In this document: positions 4,669-33,893 of the stretch, piece by piece
How positions within the stretch are numbered: the stretch's first letter is position 1
How the letters are laid out: every line of letters begins with the position of its first letter
Source: an uncultured Gammaproteobacteria bacterium
Lineage (GTDB): Bacteria > Patescibacteriota > Microgenomatia > CAZXEC01
Length of the DNA: 61,248 nucleotides
Direction: 5' to 3'
NCBI GenBank assembly: GCA_964639595.1
Contig: CAZXEC010000002.1
Location: 13,621-74,868 of the forward strand
Made by a program: the position numbers and the translations under genes
Notes under the pieces: model-generated
The model's input: the letters and a program-made list of their open reading frames with translations, nothing else
Databases searched by the model: none
What the model was told of the DNA's origin: nothing

Positions 4669-5358
4669 ATGAATTTTTTAATCTTCGGGCCGCCTGGATC
4701 AGGCAAGGGGACTTATGCCTCGCGACTGGGGCCTCAACTAGGCATTGCCCATATTTCCACCGGTGATATTTTCCGTCAGATGGCCAAAGGTGGTAGCCCC
4801 CTAGCTGATGAGGTTAAAAGTTATCTGGATCGGGGAGCGCTGGTGCCGGATGAAGTAACAGTAAACATTGTCAGGGAGGTATTAAAAAAACCCGAAGCGC
4901 AAAAGGGATTTTTTTTGGACGGATTTCCCAGGACTATTAGCCAGGCGCAAGAATTGGATAAAATTGTCAAGATTGACGCTATTTTGTTGTTGATTATGCC
5001 CAAAGAAATACTGATGGAAAAGGCTCTGGCCCGCCGAATTTGCCGCAATTGCGGCAATATCTATAACATTGCCGATATTTCCCGGACCATTGATGGAGTT
5101 GATTATGTGTTGCCTCCCATGTTGCCCAAAGTTGAAGGTAAATGTGATAAATGCGGTGGAGAAATATACCATAGAACAGATGATAACAAAAAAGTGATCG
5201 GTGATAGGCTGGCTACTTATGAGAACCAATCCAAGCCAGTGCTGGCATATTACAAAGGCCAAGGTGCTAAATTTATAGAAATCCACGTTGCCCGGCCGCC
5301 AGAAGTGATGGTGGGGAAAATCATGGATCAGCTCATCCATTCGACAAGCTCAGGATGA
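4669..5358 (+). CDS. adk: Adenylate kinase with Zn-LID
   Basis: GPPGSGKGT, HISTGDIFR, LDGFPRT, CRNC...CDKC. Confidence 0.96.
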   Translation: MNFLIFGPPGSGKGTYASRLGPQLGIAHISTGDIFRQMAKGGSPLADEVKSYLDRGALVPDEVTVNIVREVLKKPEAQKGFFLDGFPRTISQAQELDKIVKIDAILLLIMPKEILMEKALARRICRNCGNIYNIADISRTIDGVDYVLPPMLPKVEGKCDKCGGEIYHRTDDNKKVIGDRLATYENQSKPVLAYYKGQGAKFIEIHVARPPEVMVGKIMDQLIHSTSSG

Positions 5359-5522: not shown

Positions 5523-6167
5523 TTATTTAGCCATCGCCTTAAGACTAATTAATCGATCCAGATGAGGCATGGTGTTGCCAATAATGACATGGTAAAAAAC
5601 CAAAGAGCCAAATCGGCTGCCTTTTTGGCGGAATTGGTCAGTGAAAAATGATTTGGCCAATTCGTCAGTCAGGTATAACATCAAACTTAAACCCCGTAAA
5701 TCTTCGGCAAATTTACTAATGACCATATTGTAATCAAAAAATCGACCGATAATTTCTGTTCGGCCTTGTTGATTAGTAAATGATGGTATAGTTCCTGCGA
5801 TATATGGTTTAAGGGCTGTGGCTAGTTGCTGTACATGATCATAACCGTCGGCAAAATTGGGATTTTCCAAAAAATTTTCCACAATCTGCCTGGTCAATGG
5901 TGAACTGTCCGGTTCTTCAGCGGGAATGAGGTTTTCCAACCGCAGCAGTTTTTGAAAATCCGATAAGGCTTTCTCTACCGCGTGGGCTTGAGCTGGATTA
6001 GGTGAACTATAGAGTTCTTTTTGCCCAAGAGCAATGTGATACGGTCTGATCGCCATCATGTCACATGATCTGGCACCAATTTCTCGATGCAGCTTGGATA
6101 ACTCTGTCGTGGTTTGGCTATTTGGTTGAGGCTGTTCCGGTCGTCCTTCTGGATGAACTGTGGTCAT
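5523..6167 (-). CDS. Hypothetical protein
   Basis: 214-aa ORF, no recognised motif. Confidence 0.7.
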   Translation of the reverse strand: MTTVHPEGRPEQPQPNSQTTTELSKLHREIGARSCDMMAIRPYHIALGQKELYSSPNPAQAHAVEKALSDFQKLLRLENLIPAEEPDSSPLTRQIVENFLENPNFADGYDHVQQLATALKPYIAGTIPSFTNQQGRTEIIGRFFDYNMVISKFAEDLRGLSLMLYLTDELAKSFFTDQFRQKGSRFGSLVFYHVIIGNTMPHLDRLISLKAMAK

Positions 6168-6212
6168 AGATTATTACATGCCATTGTAACATAGCAGTCA
6201 AATAATCAAAGT

Positions 6213-6299
6213 CGCAATTACTGAACGAAGCTTGCCGCGCCTCGCGCGGCAATCAGGAGTTTTGTTCAAAAAAGGTTCGAGCGGCGTTCAGTAATTGCG
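6213..6299. mobile_element. 87-bp element bounded by perfect 15-bp inverted repeats
   Basis: CGCAATTACTGAACG (6213-6227) and CGTTCAGTAATTGCG (6285-6299); internal hairpin TTGCCGCGC-CTC-GCGCGGCAA. Confidence 0.55.
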
Positions 6300-6516
6300 G
6301 GGAGCCGGGATTTGAACCCGGAACCTCTCGCACCCCGCCTGCCAACGCCTATTGTCGGAGATCGCGGACTCGAACCGCGGACCTCTCGCACCCGAAGCGA
6401 GCGCTCTTCCAACTGAGCTAATCTCCGGCGTTACTATTGGCGGGCAGGCCCGCCTGCCAAAGCCTAGCATGGCGGGCAAGGCCGAAGCAAGGGCGCTACC
6501 ATTGCGCCAGTCCCCG
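6297..6516 (-). pseudogene. Interrupted tRNA-Pro (outer), ~148-nt insertion in the anticodon loop
   Basis: 5' half CGGGGAC-TG-GCGC-AATGGTA-GCGC-C-CTTGC-TT-CG (6516-6483); 3' half GGT-GCGAG-AGGTT-CCGGG-TTCAAAT-CCCGG-CTCCCCG (6334-6298); C7:C66 mismatch and C73. Confidence 0.8.
6355..6427 (-). tRNA. tRNA-Pro(CGG), nested inside the interrupted tRNA-Pro
   Basis: Complete cloverleaf: CGGAGAT/ATCTCCG acceptor, CTCGC-TTCGGGT-GCGAG anticodon arm, TTCGAGT T-loop, A73. Confidence 0.95.
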
Positions 6517-6591
6517 AAAGTGCTTATATTGTACTCCTTTTAGTAAGTTATTCCACTTACCGTCAAATTTATGCTAAAATATGTGGTATCT

Positions 6592-6663
6592 GCCCTCGTA
6601 GCTCAATGGATAGAGCACAGGTTTCCTAAACCTGCGATAAAGGTTCGATTCCTTTCGAGGGTA
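6592..6663 (+). tRNA. tRNA-Arg(CCT)
   Basis: GCCCTCG/CGAGGGT acceptor; CAGGT-TTCCTAA-ACCTG; TTCGATT. Confidence 0.95.
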
Positions 6664-6680
6664 CTATAGATAAATTTCAA

Positions 6681-6697
6681 ATCCGATTAAATCGGAT
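6681..6697. mobile_element. 17-bp palindrome, family A
   Basis: tcaa|ATCCGATTAAATCGGAT|tcaa. Confidence 0.8.
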
Positions 6698-6750
6698 TCA
6701 AATTACAAAACTCAAATGTCAAATGGATGTAATTTGTCATTTTTAGATAG

Positions 6751-7392
6751 ATGTCAAACCTAAAAGTTATCAGCATTCGCACCATTGGTTATGGTTTGGT
6801 TTTAACCTCCTTATTGTGGCTGTTTTTTTCTTTATGGCCGGTTGCTAGCGCCGAGGTGATTTACCGTTTTGGCAGACTGGTTGGCACTAATTTTATATTA
6901 GCAGATGAGGCTCGCAGTTTTGGTCAGTTGACAATAAAGCCGCATGAAAAAATCATCACTCCAGTTGACCCAGATTTTTCTTTGGTGGTGGAGAAAATTG
7001 GCGCCAACGCTAGAATAATCGCCAATGTTAATGCGGGAAATGAGCGGGAATATAATGTTAAACTGGCCCAGGGTATAGCTCACGCCAAAGGGACGGTCTT
7101 TCCTGGCCAGGCAGGAAATTCTTTTCTGTTTGCCCATTCAGTCTTAAACCCGTGGGATATTCCCCGTTATAACGCGGTCTTTTATCTATTAAGGGAGCTG
7201 GAAACAGGGGATCGGGTGGTGGCTTTTTATGGGGGCAAACGCTATAACTACACTGTGTTTGAGAAGAAAGAAGTGGCTGCCAATGATGTATCGGATCTGA
7301 CGGCGGTTTATGATTATCCGGTTTTAACTCTGCAAACTTGCACACCCCCGGGAACGACCTGGAAAAGGTTAATTGTCAAAGCTAGACTATAA
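6751..7392 (+). CDS. Sortase family protein
   Basis: N-terminal TM; FAHS, LTLQTC and KRL catalytic His/Cys/Arg pattern. Confidence 0.88.
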   Translation: MSNLKVISIRTIGYGLVLTSLLWLFFSLWPVASAEVIYRFGRLVGTNFILADEARSFGQLTIKPHEKIITPVDPDFSLVVEKIGANARIIANVNAGNEREYNVKLAQGIAHAKGTVFPGQAGNSFLFAHSVLNPWDIPRYNAVFYLLRELETGDRVVAFYGGKRYNYTVFEKKEVAANDVSDLTAVYDYPVLTLQTCTPPGTTWKRLIVKARL

Positions 7393-7506: not shown

Positions 7507-8799
7507 TCATCTTAGGGAGATGGTGTAGAGATTTAGCGGTGTGCCGGCCGGTGCGTTGAAATTAGTTAAAATAATCAATCTTGACCCATTAGGCCAGGGG
7601 AAGGCCAGACTGGAAAACAGATTGCCTGAATAAATGGTAGTTTTGTTTTGTCCGTCTGCTTCAATGATGTCAATTTGTCCGTTCGACAAGCTCAGGACAG
7701 GTCCATTCGTCAAAACAGGTCCACTGCCTGCTTGCTGCGAGTCAATTAATATTAAATGATTGGAATCCGGTGATTCAGGCAGCCACCAAATATTTTTGGG
7801 CTTGATATTGAGAATATATTGTTTTTTCTCCTTTGTATCATAGATAACATAACCATCCCTGGTTTGATAAAAGAATTTATTTTCTCCCGGCGACCAGTGC
7901 AGGCCGTCTGGATAGTAAGATAGAGCGGGAGAGTCCCACTTCGCCGAGGCTTCGAGGGGCAGGCGGGAGAGCGGGAGTACTCCAGCTTTGGCAGAGGCAG
8001 TTGATTCAGGGGAAGTTTCCAGAGCCGCCAGAGCGGCTTTTTTGGAAGATTCATCAAGCCGGGAAGTTCTGGCTGATGCTTGCTGGATTAGTTCATCTTG
8101 CCACTCTTTGATAGTTTTGGATAATGTTAAGGTAGCGTCATTTGGCCTTTCATTGAGCCTGTCTGTGTCTAAGATATAATTCCTAACAAATTTTGATCCG
8201 GGCTGTTGATTTTCTTGTAGGGAAACCAATAAATTTTTTGAATCTGGCGCCCAGGTGATTTTAGCTTTAGAAAAGATGAGTGCTGGGGTATTTTTGATAA
8301 TTAGCTTGGGATCCGAAGGAGCAAGTAAGATTCTACCGTCTGATAGGTCTGCTACCCAGAGGCCGGCTTTCTCACCACTGTCTACTCCCCAGGCAATTTT
8401 AGTGCCACTAGGAGAAAGAACCGGGTTGATGGCTCCATTGAAAGTCATTGGTGATAAAGATGGGGCACGGGGGAAAAGCAGGGCCTCGACCTTGGTGACT
8501 AATTCTTTTTTGACTTCGATGGCCTTTTGATAATCAAAATAACCCTCTTTGGTTATTTTGACTGTGTAATTGCGTGGTTCCAGGTAGGATACAGTAGAAT
8601 CAGTGGCAGCTGTCAAATGCCCATCCAGCAAGACCGAGGCCCCATCGGGAATAGAGGAGACGACCAGTATACCTGTACCAGTGATGGCTCCAGTCTTTTG
8701 ACTGATAGTATAGCCTTTGGCAAGCAATATAGTGATAATTGCGCCAATCCCAATGATGGCCAAAGACAATAATGAAATAGCCACCCTGTATCTATTCAT
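7507..8799 (-). CDS. PEGA domain membrane-anchored protein with a beta-propeller-like C-terminus
   Basis: N-terminal TM; GILVVSSIPDGASVLLDG...YTVKITKEGY. Confidence 0.85.
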   Translation of the reverse strand: MNRYRVAISLLSLAIIGIGAIITILLAKGYTISQKTGAITGTGILVVSSIPDGASVLLDGHLTAATDSTVSYLEPRNYTVKITKEGYFDYQKAIEVKKELVTKVEALLFPRAPSLSPMTFNGAINPVLSPSGTKIAWGVDSGEKAGLWVADLSDGRILLAPSDPKLIIKNTPALIFSKAKITWAPDSKNLLVSLQENQQPGSKFVRNYILDTDRLNERPNDATLTLSKTIKEWQDELIQQASARTSRLDESSKKAALAALETSPESTASAKAGVLPLSRLPLEASAKWDSPALSYYPDGLHWSPGENKFFYQTRDGYVIYDTKEKKQYILNIKPKNIWWLPESPDSNHLILIDSQQAGSGPVLTNGPVLSLSNGQIDIIEADGQNKTTIYSGNLFSSLAFPWPNGSRLIILTNFNAPAGTPLNLYTISLR

Positions 8800-30680: not shown

Positions 30681-30701
30681 ATTCCACCTTCGAGGTGGAA
30701 T
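30681..30701. repeat. REP flanking the RAYT gene (downstream)
   Basis: ATTCCACCTTCGAGGTGGAAT, identical to 31437-31457. Confidence 0.9.
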
Positions 30702-30724
30702 ACGTTTACACCTACACTTTTTAC

Positions 30725-31396
30725 TTACTCTAAGATTAGATGTTTAATCTGTTCAAGCTTCCTGGCATGATCTACTTGATCCAAAACAAACTGTTTGTAC
30801 TTCTCCTTAGAAGGAAGTAAATCTAATACCAGCTTGGGACTTGCGATGTTTTTATTGGATGATCCCATATATTCAGGAAATGATGACCACTGATAGCTTT
30901 CAAGTTCGTCCGGTTCAATTAAAAGTGAAGATACTGGATTTAAGTGGATATATCTGGAGACATGGATAAGCTGTTCGTCTGATTCAATAAGGACGGCTTT
31001 AAATAATCCTTGAAATAATGGCCCAATTCGCTCATGCCTGGTATTAAAATACCGGGTGTAACTATTTGTAAAATTTGCAACAAATGTAGAGATGCCCCCT
31101 TCTAGTTTTTGTTTAAGCAGCAAATGAAAATGGTTGGGCATTAAACAATAACAGATTATTTCAACTAATTTTTCAAAAGTATTTAAGTCCTGCCTGAATT
31201 TAGCTCTTTCAGCTTCTGCTAAATTTAAAAATCTGGACAATTTAAGTGGTAACTTTGCAAGTCTATAAAAGTCAAGGGTTATAAGACCCCTGCCTAACTC
31301 TCTTTTATCTGTAAATGTGGGTCTTTTTTCAACTCCACGGTTAAAGACATGGTAAATCTCATCATTTGCAAAAATAACCTTTCTATTAGTAGGCAT
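30725..31396 (-). CDS. REP-associated tyrosine transposase (RAYT, Y1 HUH family)
   Basis: YHVFNRG, YCLMPNHFHLL (HUH), LFQG, YIHLNPV. Confidence 0.92.
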   Translation of the reverse strand: MPTNRKVIFANDEIYHVFNRGVEKRPTFTDKRELGRGLITLDFYRLAKLPLKLSRFLNLAEAERAKFRQDLNTFEKLVEIICYCLMPNHFHLLLKQKLEGGISTFVANFTNSYTRYFNTRHERIGPLFQGLFKAVLIESDEQLIHVSRYIHLNPVSSLLIEPDELESYQWSSFPEYMGSSNKNIASPKLVLDLLPSKEKYKQFVLDQVDHARKLEQIKHLILE

Positions 31397-31436
31397 ACAC
31401 TAATAAAATAATCTAAAAAAGAAGATGTGTCAAGCT

Positions 31437-31457
31437 ATTCCACCTTCGAGGTGGAAT
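31437..31457. repeat. REP flanking the RAYT gene (upstream)
   Basis: ATTCCACCTTCGAGGTGGAAT. Confidence 0.9.
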
Positions 31458-32662: not shown

Positions 32663-32684
32663 ATGTAATCAGCAAGGCAGGCGG

Positions 32685-32719
32685 GGAGACCCGTGGTTTG
32701 CCAATTAACCGACACCCCT
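32685..32719 (-). pseudogene. Orphan 5' half of a different tRNA-Trp, broken after nt 35
   Basis: AGGGGTG-TC-GGTT-AATTGGCA-AACC-A-CGGGT-CT-CC then CCGCCTGCC. Confidence 0.8.
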
Positions 32720-33075: not shown

Positions 33076-33123
33076 GCTTTGGCTGTGCGTTGCCAAAGGC
33101 TATGCCGGCGGCACGCGGGCAGG

Positions 33124-33176
33124 CCAAGAATGTGCTCGGACTTTATCCGCCTTTGGCGGAACTGAGCTACTTCGGC
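33124..33176 (-). pseudogene. Orphan 5' half of a different tRNA (TT-GG, probably Thr GGT), with a palindrome in its D-loop
   Basis: GCCGAAG-TA-GCTC-AGT[TCCGCCAAAGGCGGA]TAAAGTCC-GAGC-A-CATTC-TT-GG then CCTGCCCGC. Confidence 0.75.
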
Positions 33177-33204: not shown

Positions 33205-33291
33205 TGGTGCTAGGGGAGGGATTCGAACCCCCGAAGGCATAAAGCCGCCTGGTTTACAGCCAGGTGCGTTTGGCCACTTCGCTACCCTAGC
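33205..33291 (-). tRNA. tRNA-Tyr(GTA) with encoded CCA
   Basis: GCTAGGG/CCCTAGC; CCTGG-CTGTAAA-CCAGG; long variable arm. Confidence 0.96.
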
Positions 33292-33893
33292 TCAATGAAT
33301 CTTATAACTAATTTCTCAATGTCGCTTCTTATTAGTGTCAGTAGTTTTTTATCATTATATCTAATATGAATAAGCCCATGGGGCATTTTGTTTTTCTTTT
33401 CCTCCAAAAAGTCTTGTCGTACGTAGGGTTTACTGAATTGTTTTTGAGAAATTCCAGTGATTTTAACCCAATAACTTATTAATCTTTGAACATTCTGATT
33501 AGCATAGCAATAAAGCAGGACTCTTAATCGTTCTTCACTAATGTTATAGATTTCTCTCAACATCTTTACAAACAGCTTAATTATCAAAGGATTGCTATTG
33601 GCAAGATCAACAGTGTACTGGCCAGTTTTAGCTCCTTCACCCCAATAAAGCATCAACCCCGCTATTTGTAATTTTTCTTCCTTGTTTGTTAAGGCGCTTT
33701 TTAGGTTAAAAGATGGTTTTTGTCTAAGAAATTTAAGTAAATTGCTTTCTTCAGATTTTCTCCTGGCCAGGCCATTTTTTTCCATAAACCTGATGACCTG
33801 CCGAACTGAAGCATCAAGCATTTCGCCAACTTCTCTTGTACTTAAACCCTTCTTGTAATATAAATTACTGACTTTTCCTATAGGTAGATTCAT
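33282..33893 (-). CDS. HTH plus LAGLIDADG-like (YWGEG-type) nuclease-like protein
   Basis: GLSTREVGEML HTH; IAGLMLYWGEGAK, LANSNP, YW..ITGI; stop codon lies inside tRNA-Tyr; start reassigned to MNLP. Confidence 0.75.
   Translation of the reverse strand: MNLPIGKVSNLYYKKGLSTREVGEMLDASVRQVIRFMEKNGLARRKSEESNLLKFLRQKPSFNLKSALTNKEEKLQIAGLMLYWGEGAKTGQYTVDLANSNPLIIKLFVKMLREIYNISEERLRVLLYCYANQNVQRLISYWVKITGISQKQFSKPYVRQDFLEEKKNKMPHGLIHIRYNDKKLLTLIRSDIEKLVIRFIELG

Follow-up and report, generated by a model that had tools for sequence, protein, structure and literature searches.

A complete tRNA-Pro gene nested in the anticodon loop of another tRNA-Pro gene, and a candidate hairpin-ended tRNA cassette in Patescibacteria

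The subject of this analysis is a tRNA-Pro locus in a stretch of 61,248 nucleotides (nt) from an uncultured bacterium of the Patescibacteriota (Microgenomatia, CAZXEC01; assembly GCA_964639595.1, contig CAZXEC010000002.1, positions 13,621 to 74,868), which is referred to as the window throughout and in which a complete tRNA-Pro(CGG) gene lies inside the anticodon loop of a second tRNA-Pro gene (Table 1). All parts of the locus are read from the minus strand. The outer gene is represented by its two halves, which were recovered with hidden Markov models (HMMs) of tRNA-Pro 5′ and 3′ halves built from the genes of 56 relatives, and which are separated by an insert of 148 nt placed directly after G36, without any target-site duplication. 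The insert consists of two adjoining hairpins, the small HP1 with the arms CCTTGCCCGCCA..TGGCAGGCGGG and the larger HP2 (6448-6334), whose arms CCTGCCCGCCA and TGGCAGGCGGG together with an inner AACGC/GCGTT helix surround the inner tRNA. CAATAG repeats at 6439-6434 and 6354-6349 border the inner gene, an (A)ATAG repeat being present on either side of this cargo. As judged from the minimum-energy RNA fold of the insert, the arms pair with each other and the inner cloverleaf forms by itself. A sequence-only reading of this DNA had already described the two outer halves, the intact inner tRNA-Pro(CGG), the two hairpins, the AACGC/GCGTT pairs and the CAATAG repeats, all of which are borne out by the half-tRNA HMMs and the joined cloverleaf, by ARAGORN and Rfam (minus strand, 6354/6355-6427), and by the sequence together with a repeat search, respectively.

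The hairpin family to which these arms belong is named HP-A here and has the termini CCTGCCCGCCAATAG...ATAGGCGTTGGCAGGCGGG. The 11-mer of the arm occurs six times in the window with at most one mismatch, against 0.88 expected, and exact arm 10-mers occur 16 times in the 531 kb of window and relatives, against 0.43 expected, most of them within about 70 nt of an annotated tRNA gene. The window itself contains only a few recognizable HP-A copies or arm remnants. An exact arm 10-mer is located at 7958-7967, inside the window's gene for a PEGA-domain protein.

On removal of the insert, ARAGORN recognizes the joined outer halves as a tRNA-Pro of 71 nt, the anticodon of which depends on the placement of the breakpoint: it is CGG with three or more loop nucleotides assigned to the 5′ half (three to five of them restore TTCGGGT) and GGG with zero to two, in line with the ambiguity pointed out in the sequence-only reading. 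The C7:C66 mismatch and the C73 discriminator noted there for the outer gene are likewise seen in the ARAGORN drawing, and C73 should be regarded as aberrant, because all 56 intact tRNA-Pro genes of the relatives carry A73. The inverted-repeat element adjoining the outer gene overlaps the final 3 nt of the outer tRNA-Pro, and its loop contains a perfect 9-bp hairpin (TTGCCGCGC/GCGCGGCAA), which represents another hairpin within a hairpin.

Table 1. Features of the nested tRNA-Pro locus and of related sites in the window, and nested loci of relatives. The letters A to D denote tRNA-Pro sequence types, given from outside to inside.
Feature	Coordinates	Strand	Evidence or remark
Outer tRNA-Pro 5′ half (nt 1-36), CGGGGACTGGCGCAATGGTAGCGCCCTTGCTTCGG, ending ..CTTGCTTCGG	6482..6516	-	half-tRNA HMM, E 3e-5; cloverleaf on joining
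HP1, empty 33-nt HP-A hairpin CCTTGCCCGCCATGCTAGGCTTTGGCAGGCGGG, polymorphic	6449..6481	-	sequence; hairpin fold; missing from Logan contig
Cassette 5′ framework CCTGCCCGCCAATAGTAACGC, the 5′ arm of HP2	6428..6448	-	87-95% identity to frameworks of L198, L201 and L208
Inner (cargo) tRNA-Pro(CGG), intact, A73	6355..6427	-	ARAGORN; Rfam RF00005, 63 bits
Cassette 3′ framework CAATAGGCGTTGGCAGGCGGG, the 3′ arm of HP2	6334..6354	-	pairs with 5′ framework in minimum-energy fold
Outer tRNA-Pro 3′ half (nt 37-72; 6333-6298, GTGCGAGAGGTTCCGGGTTCAAATCCCGGCTCCCCG) and discriminator C73 at 6297	6297..6333	-	half-tRNA HMM, E 1.4e-6
TACAAT box, 11 nt upstream of outer 5′ end, putative resident promoter	6528..6533	-	sequence
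87-nt inverted-repeat element, 20-nt arms 90% complementary, abutting outer 3′ end	6213..6299	.	repeat search
Older tRNA-Thr 5′ half, broken after TTGG in anticodon loop	33124..33176	-	upstream of tRNA-Thr(GGT)
Decayed HP-A-like hairpin CCTGCCCGCG..TAGCCTTTGGCAACGC	33076..33123	-	between Thr scar and intact tRNA-Thr(GGT) at 33075-33002
Older tRNA-Trp 5′ half (32719-32685, ends CTCC), then HP-A arm CCGCCTGCC	32676..32719	-	exact arm 10-mer
RAYT-like HUH Y1 transposase gene (30725-31396) between identical 21-nt hairpins	30681..31457	-	Pfam Y1_Tnp; HFH and YIHLNP motifs
Nest of the window			B ⊃ A
Nest of L198: outer half ..CGCTTCGG, then CCTGCCCGCCAATAGCAACA, tRNA-Pro, CAGAGATAGGCGTTGGCAGGCGGG, outer half GTACGAG..			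C′ ⊃ C
Nest of L201: outer half ..GCGTTCGG, then CCTGCCCGCCAATAGCAACGC, tRNA-Pro, CAGATAGGCGTTGGCAGGCGGG, outer half GACGCAG..			D ⊃ C
Nest of L208, three levels: decayed outermost gene holds the same cassette, whose tRNA is split by another cassette			B ⊃ C ⊃ D
Nest of L211: truncated outer gene; cassette bounded by a different hairpin, HP-B (TCCGCC..GGGCGGA)			C ⊃ B

The nest is not an artefact of assembly, because an independent Logan assembly of the run SRR4343435 carries it as well (contig SRR4343435_17141, 100% identity over 5.7 kb); the same architecture is also present in four metagenome contigs of the Joint Genome Institute (JGI). The Logan allele lacks exactly the 33 nt of HP1, which reduces the insert to 115 nt and identifies HP1 as a recent, clean insertion or deletion. 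HP1 is also needed for the only promoter-like match within the insert, since the arms otherwise directly adjoin the tRNA: where HP1 meets HP2, a sigma-70-like arrangement of TTGGCA, 16 nt and AATAGT (6433-6460) arises, a match to the consensus only, which ends 6 nt before the inner tRNA and loses its -35 part in the allele without HP1. As far as can be read from the sequence, HP1 may provide the inner tRNA with a private promoter when standing beside HP2. Among the Logan contig ends considered as alternative alleles, the one at 6109 was rejected as a Nextera adapter tail (L003 4463-4481, CTGTCTCTTATACACATCT), and those at 6289/6299 gave no information. Seven contigs of relatives (L133, L142, L154, L157, L158, L163 and L196) end inside tRNA-Pro or tRNA-Arg. 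Such ends would fit with a breaking of short-read assemblies at repeated or nested tRNA sequences, and nests are therefore probably under-counted.

By its homologues and their names (Curtiss-, Davies- and Levybacteria, about 50% identity), the sortase assigns the window to Patescibacteria of Microgenomates-like affiliation, and the genes around it follow a conserved order, [adk]-tRNA-Pro(CGG)-tRNA-Arg(CCT)-sortase-PEGA protein-MreB. A relative from NCBI (L131) contains one uninterrupted tRNA-Pro at the syntenic place. An alignment-based scan of JGI metagenomes yielded 80 more loci, a scan with the single sortase protein having found none. An annotated tRNA-Pro(CGG) is present in 56 of 84 loci, most of which also contain a tRNA-Arg(CCT) just upstream of the sortase gene, and a search of all loci with the half-tRNA HMMs showed orphan halves flanking intact genes. 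The cassette of the window, in the form TTCGG/CCTGCCCGCCAATAGYAACGC-[tRNA-Pro]-CARATAGGCGTTGGCAGGCGGG/G37, recurs at the same loop position in L198, L201 and L208 (Table 1), as revealed by the comparison of the locus in relatives, and is thereby found in four different outer tRNAs. The second cassette of L208 has its arms in reverse-complement form (CCCGCCTGC..GGCGGGCAGG). Among these loci, the outer genes share 67-78% identity and the cargo tRNAs 77-100%, and the non-coding framework flanks share 80-95%. Cargo and outer gene have the same orientation and the same anticodon in every nested case examined, and the outer genes of L198 and L201 are preceded, at a distance of about 10 nt, by -10-like TATAAT/TACAAT boxes. 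The outer copies show decay: that of L198 has three stem mismatches and has lost the GG of the D-loop, and those forming the outermost layer of L208 and the outer layer of L211 are truncated. With the inserts removed, ARAGORN still recognizes five of six outer genes.

A view on the nesting orders in Table 1 shows that the tRNA-Pro sequence types replace each other in all orders. The cargo of L201 is identical to the middle tRNA-Pro of L208 at 73 of 73 positions, in hosts which share only 53% identity in the sortase, 50% in the PEGA protein and 79% in MreB and which also differ in their tRNA-Arg genes; this is as predicted for a horizontally moving cassette, unlike a single ancient nest inherited vertically. 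Over 52 loci, tRNA identity hardly follows the relatedness of the hosts (Spearman rho 0.17 for Pro, 0.11 for Arg), and tRNA-Pro genes of 97-100% identity occur in hosts whose sortases are 41-53% identical. At the level of sequence comparison, this near lack of correlation fits with frequent tRNA replacement.

Nests and their remains are not confined to tRNA-Pro. In L198 a tRNA-Arg(CCT) gene is fully nested as well, at site 37/38 and between the arms CCGCGCCTGC..CGGCGGGCAGG, and in L153 a tRNA-Arg gene is nested in the D-loop with other arms. L166 shows a tRNA-Arg 5′ half followed directly by an open reading frame (ORF) with a helix-turn-helix (HTH) motif and then by an intact, different tRNA-Arg, without GC arms, and L204 carries Arg 5′ fragments in tandem, all of which contain an HP-B hairpin in the D-loop. 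Two scars are present in the window (Table 1). The Thr scar lies between tRNA-Tyr and tRNA-Thr(GGT), agrees with the 5′ half of tRNA-Thr(TGT) at 28 of 35 aligned positions (binomial 1.4e-9), contains a 15-nt HP-B hairpin in its D-loop (TCCGCCAAAGGCGGA, 33146-33160), and has the same junction motif as the Pro locus, the loop being followed directly by CCTGCCCGC; no tRNA-Thr 3′ half is found after the intact tRNA-Thr(GGT) in the window. The Trp scar matches the 5′ half of the intact tRNA-Trp without gaps at 24 of 35 positions (binomial 2.9e-6) and retains an intact D-stem. The intact tRNA-Trp gene at 32662-32589 is enclosed by a leader CTGATT which pairs with the trailer AATCAG. Marks of a nest or scar are thus found on three of the six tRNA genes in the window. 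Among scars, 5′ halves are retained more often than 3′ halves (Thr and Trp in the window, L166, L143, L155, L197, L204), and many loci of relatives keep a 5′ fragment only.

The HP-A hairpin is also found without any cargo. Searches of IMG/VR with the exact arms revealed HP-A copies of 27-33 nt in intergenic positions of tailed-phage contigs, several per contig, which occupy unrelated targets without a common core sequence. Precise pairs of empty and filled sites are available for three insertions. The HP-A copy of L123 reads CCTGCCCGCCGAACA followed by AATTCTTTGGCAGGCGGG, and the homologous place in L096/L118 contains a 27-nt HP-A inserted exactly between these two parts, in the hairpin loop and without duplication; a glycosyltransferase ORF of L165 contains a copy of about 40 nt (7009-7050) and remains open, L171 being without this copy; HP1 in the window, compared with the Logan allele, constitutes the third pair. 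HP-A thus has the features of miniature inverted-repeat transposable elements (MITEs), namely conserved termini (80-95%), empty and filled sites and the same element in different contexts, although it differs from MITEs of the DDE type in inserting without target-site duplication. The phage contigs L096/L118, L123, L090, L095 and L115 show hairpins inside hairpins as well as modules of a hairpin with its flanks that occur repeatedly. No Rfam family at E<=1 was assigned to the hairpin in six HP-A-carrying phage contigs, and the scans of viral contigs did not reveal a cargo-bearing hairpin, an outer tRNA 5′ half or a cassette 3′ framework.

The anatomy of the locus, the repeated occurrence of the cassette in various outer genes and hosts, the precise empty and filled sites and the decay of outer copies are direct observations, and they probably reflect the entry of a small cassette, hairpin-ended and devoid of a promoter, into the anticodon loop of a resident tRNA-Pro(CGG) gene, the cassette carrying a tRNA-Pro(CGG) of its own. 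Of the two possibilities considered in the sequence-only reading, a cassette that breaks and replaces a host tRNA is therefore the one that gains support, from its recurrence in divergent relatives, the 100% identical cargo of L201 and L208 and the decaying outer copies. The insertion would split and inactivate the outer gene, whose promoter would drive transcription of the cargo within a chimeric precursor. In this precursor the arms would clamp into a helix, and the inner cloverleaf would fold without interference from the similar outer halves. RNase P together with 3′ trimming could then free the inner tRNA, and decoding would be kept while the old gene decays ("break and replace"). Such a course of events is suggested because the cassette lacks a promoter, a -10-like box lies upstream of the outer gene, orientation and anticodon are matched, and the promoter-bearing 5′ scars are retained more often than the 3′ ones. 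Only insertions into a gene for the same isoacceptor and in the same orientation would be harmless and expressed, since insertion into any other single-copy tRNA gene would do harm; the constant match of inner and outer genes would most simply be accounted for by this survival filter, or else may come about through targeting by the cargo. Repetition of the cycle would generate Russian-doll genes and a fast horizontal turnover of tRNA genes in the clade. A stronger version, which we put forward tentatively, regards these units as "selfish tRNA genes", that is, promoter-less, hairpin-ended cassettes which would spread between Patescibacteria (possibly via phages or DNA uptake), insert in the anticodon loop of their own isoacceptor gene (sometimes in the D-loop), take over its promoter and make the old copy redundant.

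The enzyme that might move HP-A is a more doubtful matter. HUH enzymes act on folded single-stranded DNA, and a mechanism on such a substrate is suggested for HP-A because of its tiny palindromes, its precise insertion without duplication, the use of either arm orientation, and the preference for hairpin loops and for highly transcribed structured genes. HP-A could possibly be moved as folded single-stranded DNA into hairpin loops by an HUH/Y1 enzyme acting in trans and resembling those of repetitive extragenic palindromic (REP) elements, the REP-associated tyrosine transposases (RAYT), or of IS200, but we regard this step as rather uncertain. A candidate of this kind is encoded in the window as a single-copy Y1 transposase gene flanked by cognate palindromes, the identical hairpins ATTCCACCTCGAAGGTGGAAT at 30681-30701 and 31437-31457. 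Its product scores 35 bits with Pfam Y1_Tnp (cut-off 23), and its best NCBIfam match is REP-associated tyrosine transposase with 46 bits, below the cut-off of 80. Homologues of 60-88% identity are apparently single-copy across Microgenomates, their flanking hairpins being kept via compensatory changes. HP-B (TCCGCC..GGCGGA), which is found in tRNA D-loops, does resemble the RAYT flanks. No relative of the RAYT-like gene was found in the scans of viral contigs. The description of the hairpins as REP-like in the sequence-only reading is therefore appropriate in that empty copies insert precisely and a RAYT-like gene is present in the window, but a link between this gene and the HP-A arms did not receive support. 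The enzyme acting on HP-A may be encoded elsewhere in the genome or in phages.

Several other genes around tRNA loci of this clade deserve attention. The gap between tRNA-Pro and tRNA-Arg measures from about 0 to 850 nt in relatives (L148, L155, L161, L170, L177, L190, L193, L206 and L207) and contains different ORFs in different relatives, coding for a PaaX/Cas2-like protein, a protein of 23S rRNA intervening sequences (IVS) or a PD-(D/E)XK endonuclease; in relatives the Pro-Arg gap can also hold a gene for an HTH protein, and in terms of its gene content, this gap is a hot spot for selfish-looking genes. An HTH ORF of about 200 amino acids is found in the window (33282-33890, minus strand), in L159 (3244-3936), L166 (2999-3667) and L201 (2299-2961), always between tRNA genes and often running into the next one, the copy of the window being located in the Thr/Tyr cluster. 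Its product combines an N-terminal HTH of the resolvase type with a C-terminal domain lacking an assignment, in which the motif LYWGEGxK is found. This motif had been taken by eye (LYWGEGAK) for a sign of a LAGLIDADG homing endonuclease, but profile searches against Pfam, PHROGs, NCBIfam and PDB match the HTH only, and a structure model from the single sequence reached a predicted local distance difference test value (pLDDT) of 38 and was unusable; the ORF may code for a homing endonuclease. For the ORF of 214 amino acids at 5523-6167 (minus strand), which separates adk from the tRNA-Pro locus, no homologue beyond this species was found among 5.8 billion proteins and no family was matched; the ORF is missing from the syntenic place in L131. 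The adenylate kinase gene itself (4669-5358) has its best matches mostly in archaeal metagenome-assembled genomes at about 50% identity (at most 52%, among species-representative genomes), which suggests a gene of archaeal type gained by transfer.

A number of points weigh against the cassette interpretation. The outer gene of L201 and the middle gene of L208 still form perfect cloverleaves according to ARAGORN, and the processing route as well as the death of the outer gene are steps that we infer. How a tRNA came to lie within the loop of a hairpin is not accounted for by the proposal, and neither is the finding that the frameworks are more alike than the cargo (95% versus 77% between the window and L201), which looks as if the exchange of cargo had followed the tRNA borders exactly. 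HP-A copies in the 531 kb number only a handful, far below typical REP families, and no cargo-bearing copy was found in viral contigs. No transposase or recombinase is encoded near four of the nested loci, those examined for this. The involvement of an HUH enzyme is the weakest element and stays inferential, because the flanks of the RAYT-like gene (TTCCACC..GGTGGAA) are unlike HP-A (CCTGCCCGCC..GGCAGGCGGG) and no HP-A is found at the RAYT loci of the window and of the relatives examined.

The nested loci may alternatively be regarded as products of recombination, in which foreign tRNA genes were patched in after double-strand breaks in tRNA loops, possibly made by free-standing nucleases, and the hairpins were hot spots or by-products. 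The selfish-looking ORFs in the Pro-Arg gap of relatives and the HTH homologue in the Thr/Tyr cluster of the window would be in keeping with this idea, as would the arrangement of L166 without GC arms, the decoupling of tRNA identity from host relatedness, and the many one-sided scars, such as illegitimate joins would leave if homology anchored them on a single side. As an explanation of the nests themselves it is nevertheless unlikely, because it leaves unexplained why the insertions are precise to the base and keep both halves, why identical termini are found at the same loop position in unrelated outer genes, and why empty hairpins of 27 and 33 nt are inserted precisely; moreover, the outer anticodon stems differ between loci, which speaks against co-conversion from a common donor, and the Pfam and PDB matches of the HTH ORF cover its HTH without any nuclease match. 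Recombination at nuclease breaks is probably at work in addition to the cassette mechanism. A circular cassette moved by site-specific recombination, as in integrons or with an integrase, is also conceivable, since integrases classically target anticodon loops, and the expression of promoter-less cassettes from a resident promoter is reminiscent of integrons. The abutted ends TTGGCAGGCGGG and CCTGCCCGCCAA would then serve as a near-palindromic core recombining with the symmetric anticodon stem-loop, and they are indeed palindromic at 20 of 24 positions at the HP1/HP2 junction (own count); the Pro junctions furthermore allow a shared GG crossover. This appears very unlikely, as no integrase is encoded near the four nested loci, the empty copies of 27-33 nt are too small for double-stranded circles and share no common core between their unrelated targets, and the Arg junction (GTCCTA/CC..GG/AGGG) has no crossover dinucleotide in common with the target. 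A GG crossover by a serine recombinase was rejected on the same grounds: it fits the Pro and Thr junctions and fails at the Arg junction.

An intron-like nested gene would yield two tRNA-Pro species, CGG from the insert and CGG or GGG from the ligated halves, corresponding to the second possibility of the sequence-only reading, a nested transcript processed into two Pro tRNAs. Archaeal tRNA introns can hold functional RNAs, such as the box C/D RNA in the tRNA-Trp intron, the joined halves give a tRNA-Pro valid for ARAGORN with either anticodon, and little or no damage is seen in the outer genes of the window and of L201 or in the middle gene of L208. We nonetheless consider this highly improbable. 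The intron mode of ARAGORN (0-400 nt) did not report the outer gene, Rfam assigned the locus to none of its families of introns, ribozymes or hairpins at the gathering threshold or at E<=10, and a cmscan of 6150-6700 at E<=10 returned tRNAs and chance-level matches only, without any Rfam intron family. A group I intron is thereby rejected, also because 115-148 nt are too few for known group I introns (about 200 nt or more) and the outer exons are decayed. The group I introns reported for tRNAs of Patescibacteria, to which the sequence-only reading refers, are of no relevance to this locus. An archaeal-type intron with a bulge-helix-bulge (BHB) motif is rejected as well, since the junctions lack the 3-4-3 arrangement and the insertion site differs between cases, being 34/35-36/37 in Pro, 37/38 in Arg, and the D-loop elsewhere; the junction constructs of the window, L201 and the Arg nest of L198 fold into a near-continuous extension of the anticodon stem with irregularities of 1-2 nt. 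The outer C73, against A73 in 56 of 56 relatives, the defective outer copies of L198, L208 and L211 and the Thr and Trp scars of the window point in the same direction. The last alternative, an assembly artefact joining two tRNA-Pro loci, was named in the sequence-only reading as what would overturn it and draws on the breaks and false joins that tRNA repeats can cause in short-read assemblies and on the several contigs which end in or beside these tRNAs; its probability is negligible in view of the independent Logan assembly and of four unrelated JGI contigs which show different tRNAs with the same arms.

If compared with known systems, the hairpin-ended cassette shares most with REP elements and their pairs (REPINs) mobilized by RAYT, and with the palindrome-associated transposable elements (PATEs) of the IS200/IS605 group. 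All of these are short, GC-rich, imperfect and non-coding palindromes with precise insertion and no target duplication; hairpins nested in hairpins occur in both cases, and a single-copy conserved Y1 gene between its own hairpins is present in the window and relatives. Unlike REP elements, HP-A carries a whole tRNA in its loop, has a very low copy number, inserts in hairpin loops of structural RNA genes and even in ORFs, shows no GTAG-type motif, and does not match the hairpins flanking the RAYT-like gene. Integrative elements targeting tRNA genes resemble the cassette in their target, often the anticodon loop, in bringing compensating tRNA sequence and in leaving displaced tRNA fragments. These islands and prophages measure kilobases and carry an integrase gene, and what they restore of the tRNA is its 3′ part only, which results in a hybrid gene, whereas the inserts described here comprise 115-148 nt without an ORF, contribute a complete, different and non-hybrid tRNA and keep both old halves. 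Integron cassettes have promoter-less cargo, an imperfect palindrome, the use of a resident promoter and serial accumulation at one site in common with the nests; however, the palindrome of HP-A is divided between the two ends of the cargo, GTTGGCA is by inspection no match to GTTRRRY, the target is the loop of a tRNA gene, and neither attI/IntI nor any other integrase is seen near the four nested loci. Introns in tRNA genes and split or permuted tRNA genes also show anticodon-loop inserts, extended junction helices and functional RNAs within the insert, but have no counterpart here to the ribozyme core or the BHB motif, and the outer exons are decaying; splicing would in any case be unnecessary, because the insert holds a complete isoacceptor tRNA. 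The IVS of 23S rRNA, homologues of whose proteins are encoded in the Pro-Arg gap of relatives, are likewise sporadic stem-loops, which take the place of a helix tip in the gene for a structural RNA. They differ in that excision without ligation leaves a working rRNA, whereas a tRNA cut in its anticodon loop would fail, its function passing to the cargo.

Full-text literature searches for the arms, for nested or interrupted tRNA genes, for RAYT/REPIN together with tRNA and for palindromic insertions in the Candidate Phyla Radiation (CPR, Patescibacteria) did not retrieve any description of a tRNA-in-tRNA gene or of a tRNA-carrying hairpin cassette, and the one relevant preprint covers group I introns only. 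The cassette is filed here with the non-autonomous hairpin elements (REP, PATE, MITE-like), the new features being the tRNA cargo and the loop of a homologous gene as target; in the stronger reading, it may represent a distinct class of self-propagating tRNA genes. Apart from its genetic role, it offers a natural system for studying how hairpin elements of 27-33 nt become inserted in the loops of further hairpins. Its principle, the delivery of an RNA gene to a structured and transcribed target by a minimal cis element, could be useful for engineering.

The nested loci point to an undescribed mode of tRNA gene turnover between genomes. Genes for tRNAs are usually seen as stable vertical markers or as passive landing pads, whereas here the tRNA is the passenger and its homologue the target. 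The outer halves and scars go unseen because tRNA finders report the inner gene only. Break and replace would be a simple route to the horizontal replacement of tRNA genes without loss of decoding, and such replacement would explain why the tRNA sequences at a conserved Microgenomates locus barely track their hosts (rho 0.1-0.2). Many insertions are known in the rRNA genes of CPR bacteria, and together with these the nests suggest that genes for structural RNAs are a main arena for selfish DNA in reduced genomes. If the proposal of selfish tRNA genes is true, they would largely uncouple the phylogeny of tRNA genes from that of the genomes carrying them, with Russian-doll tRNA genes as a result.

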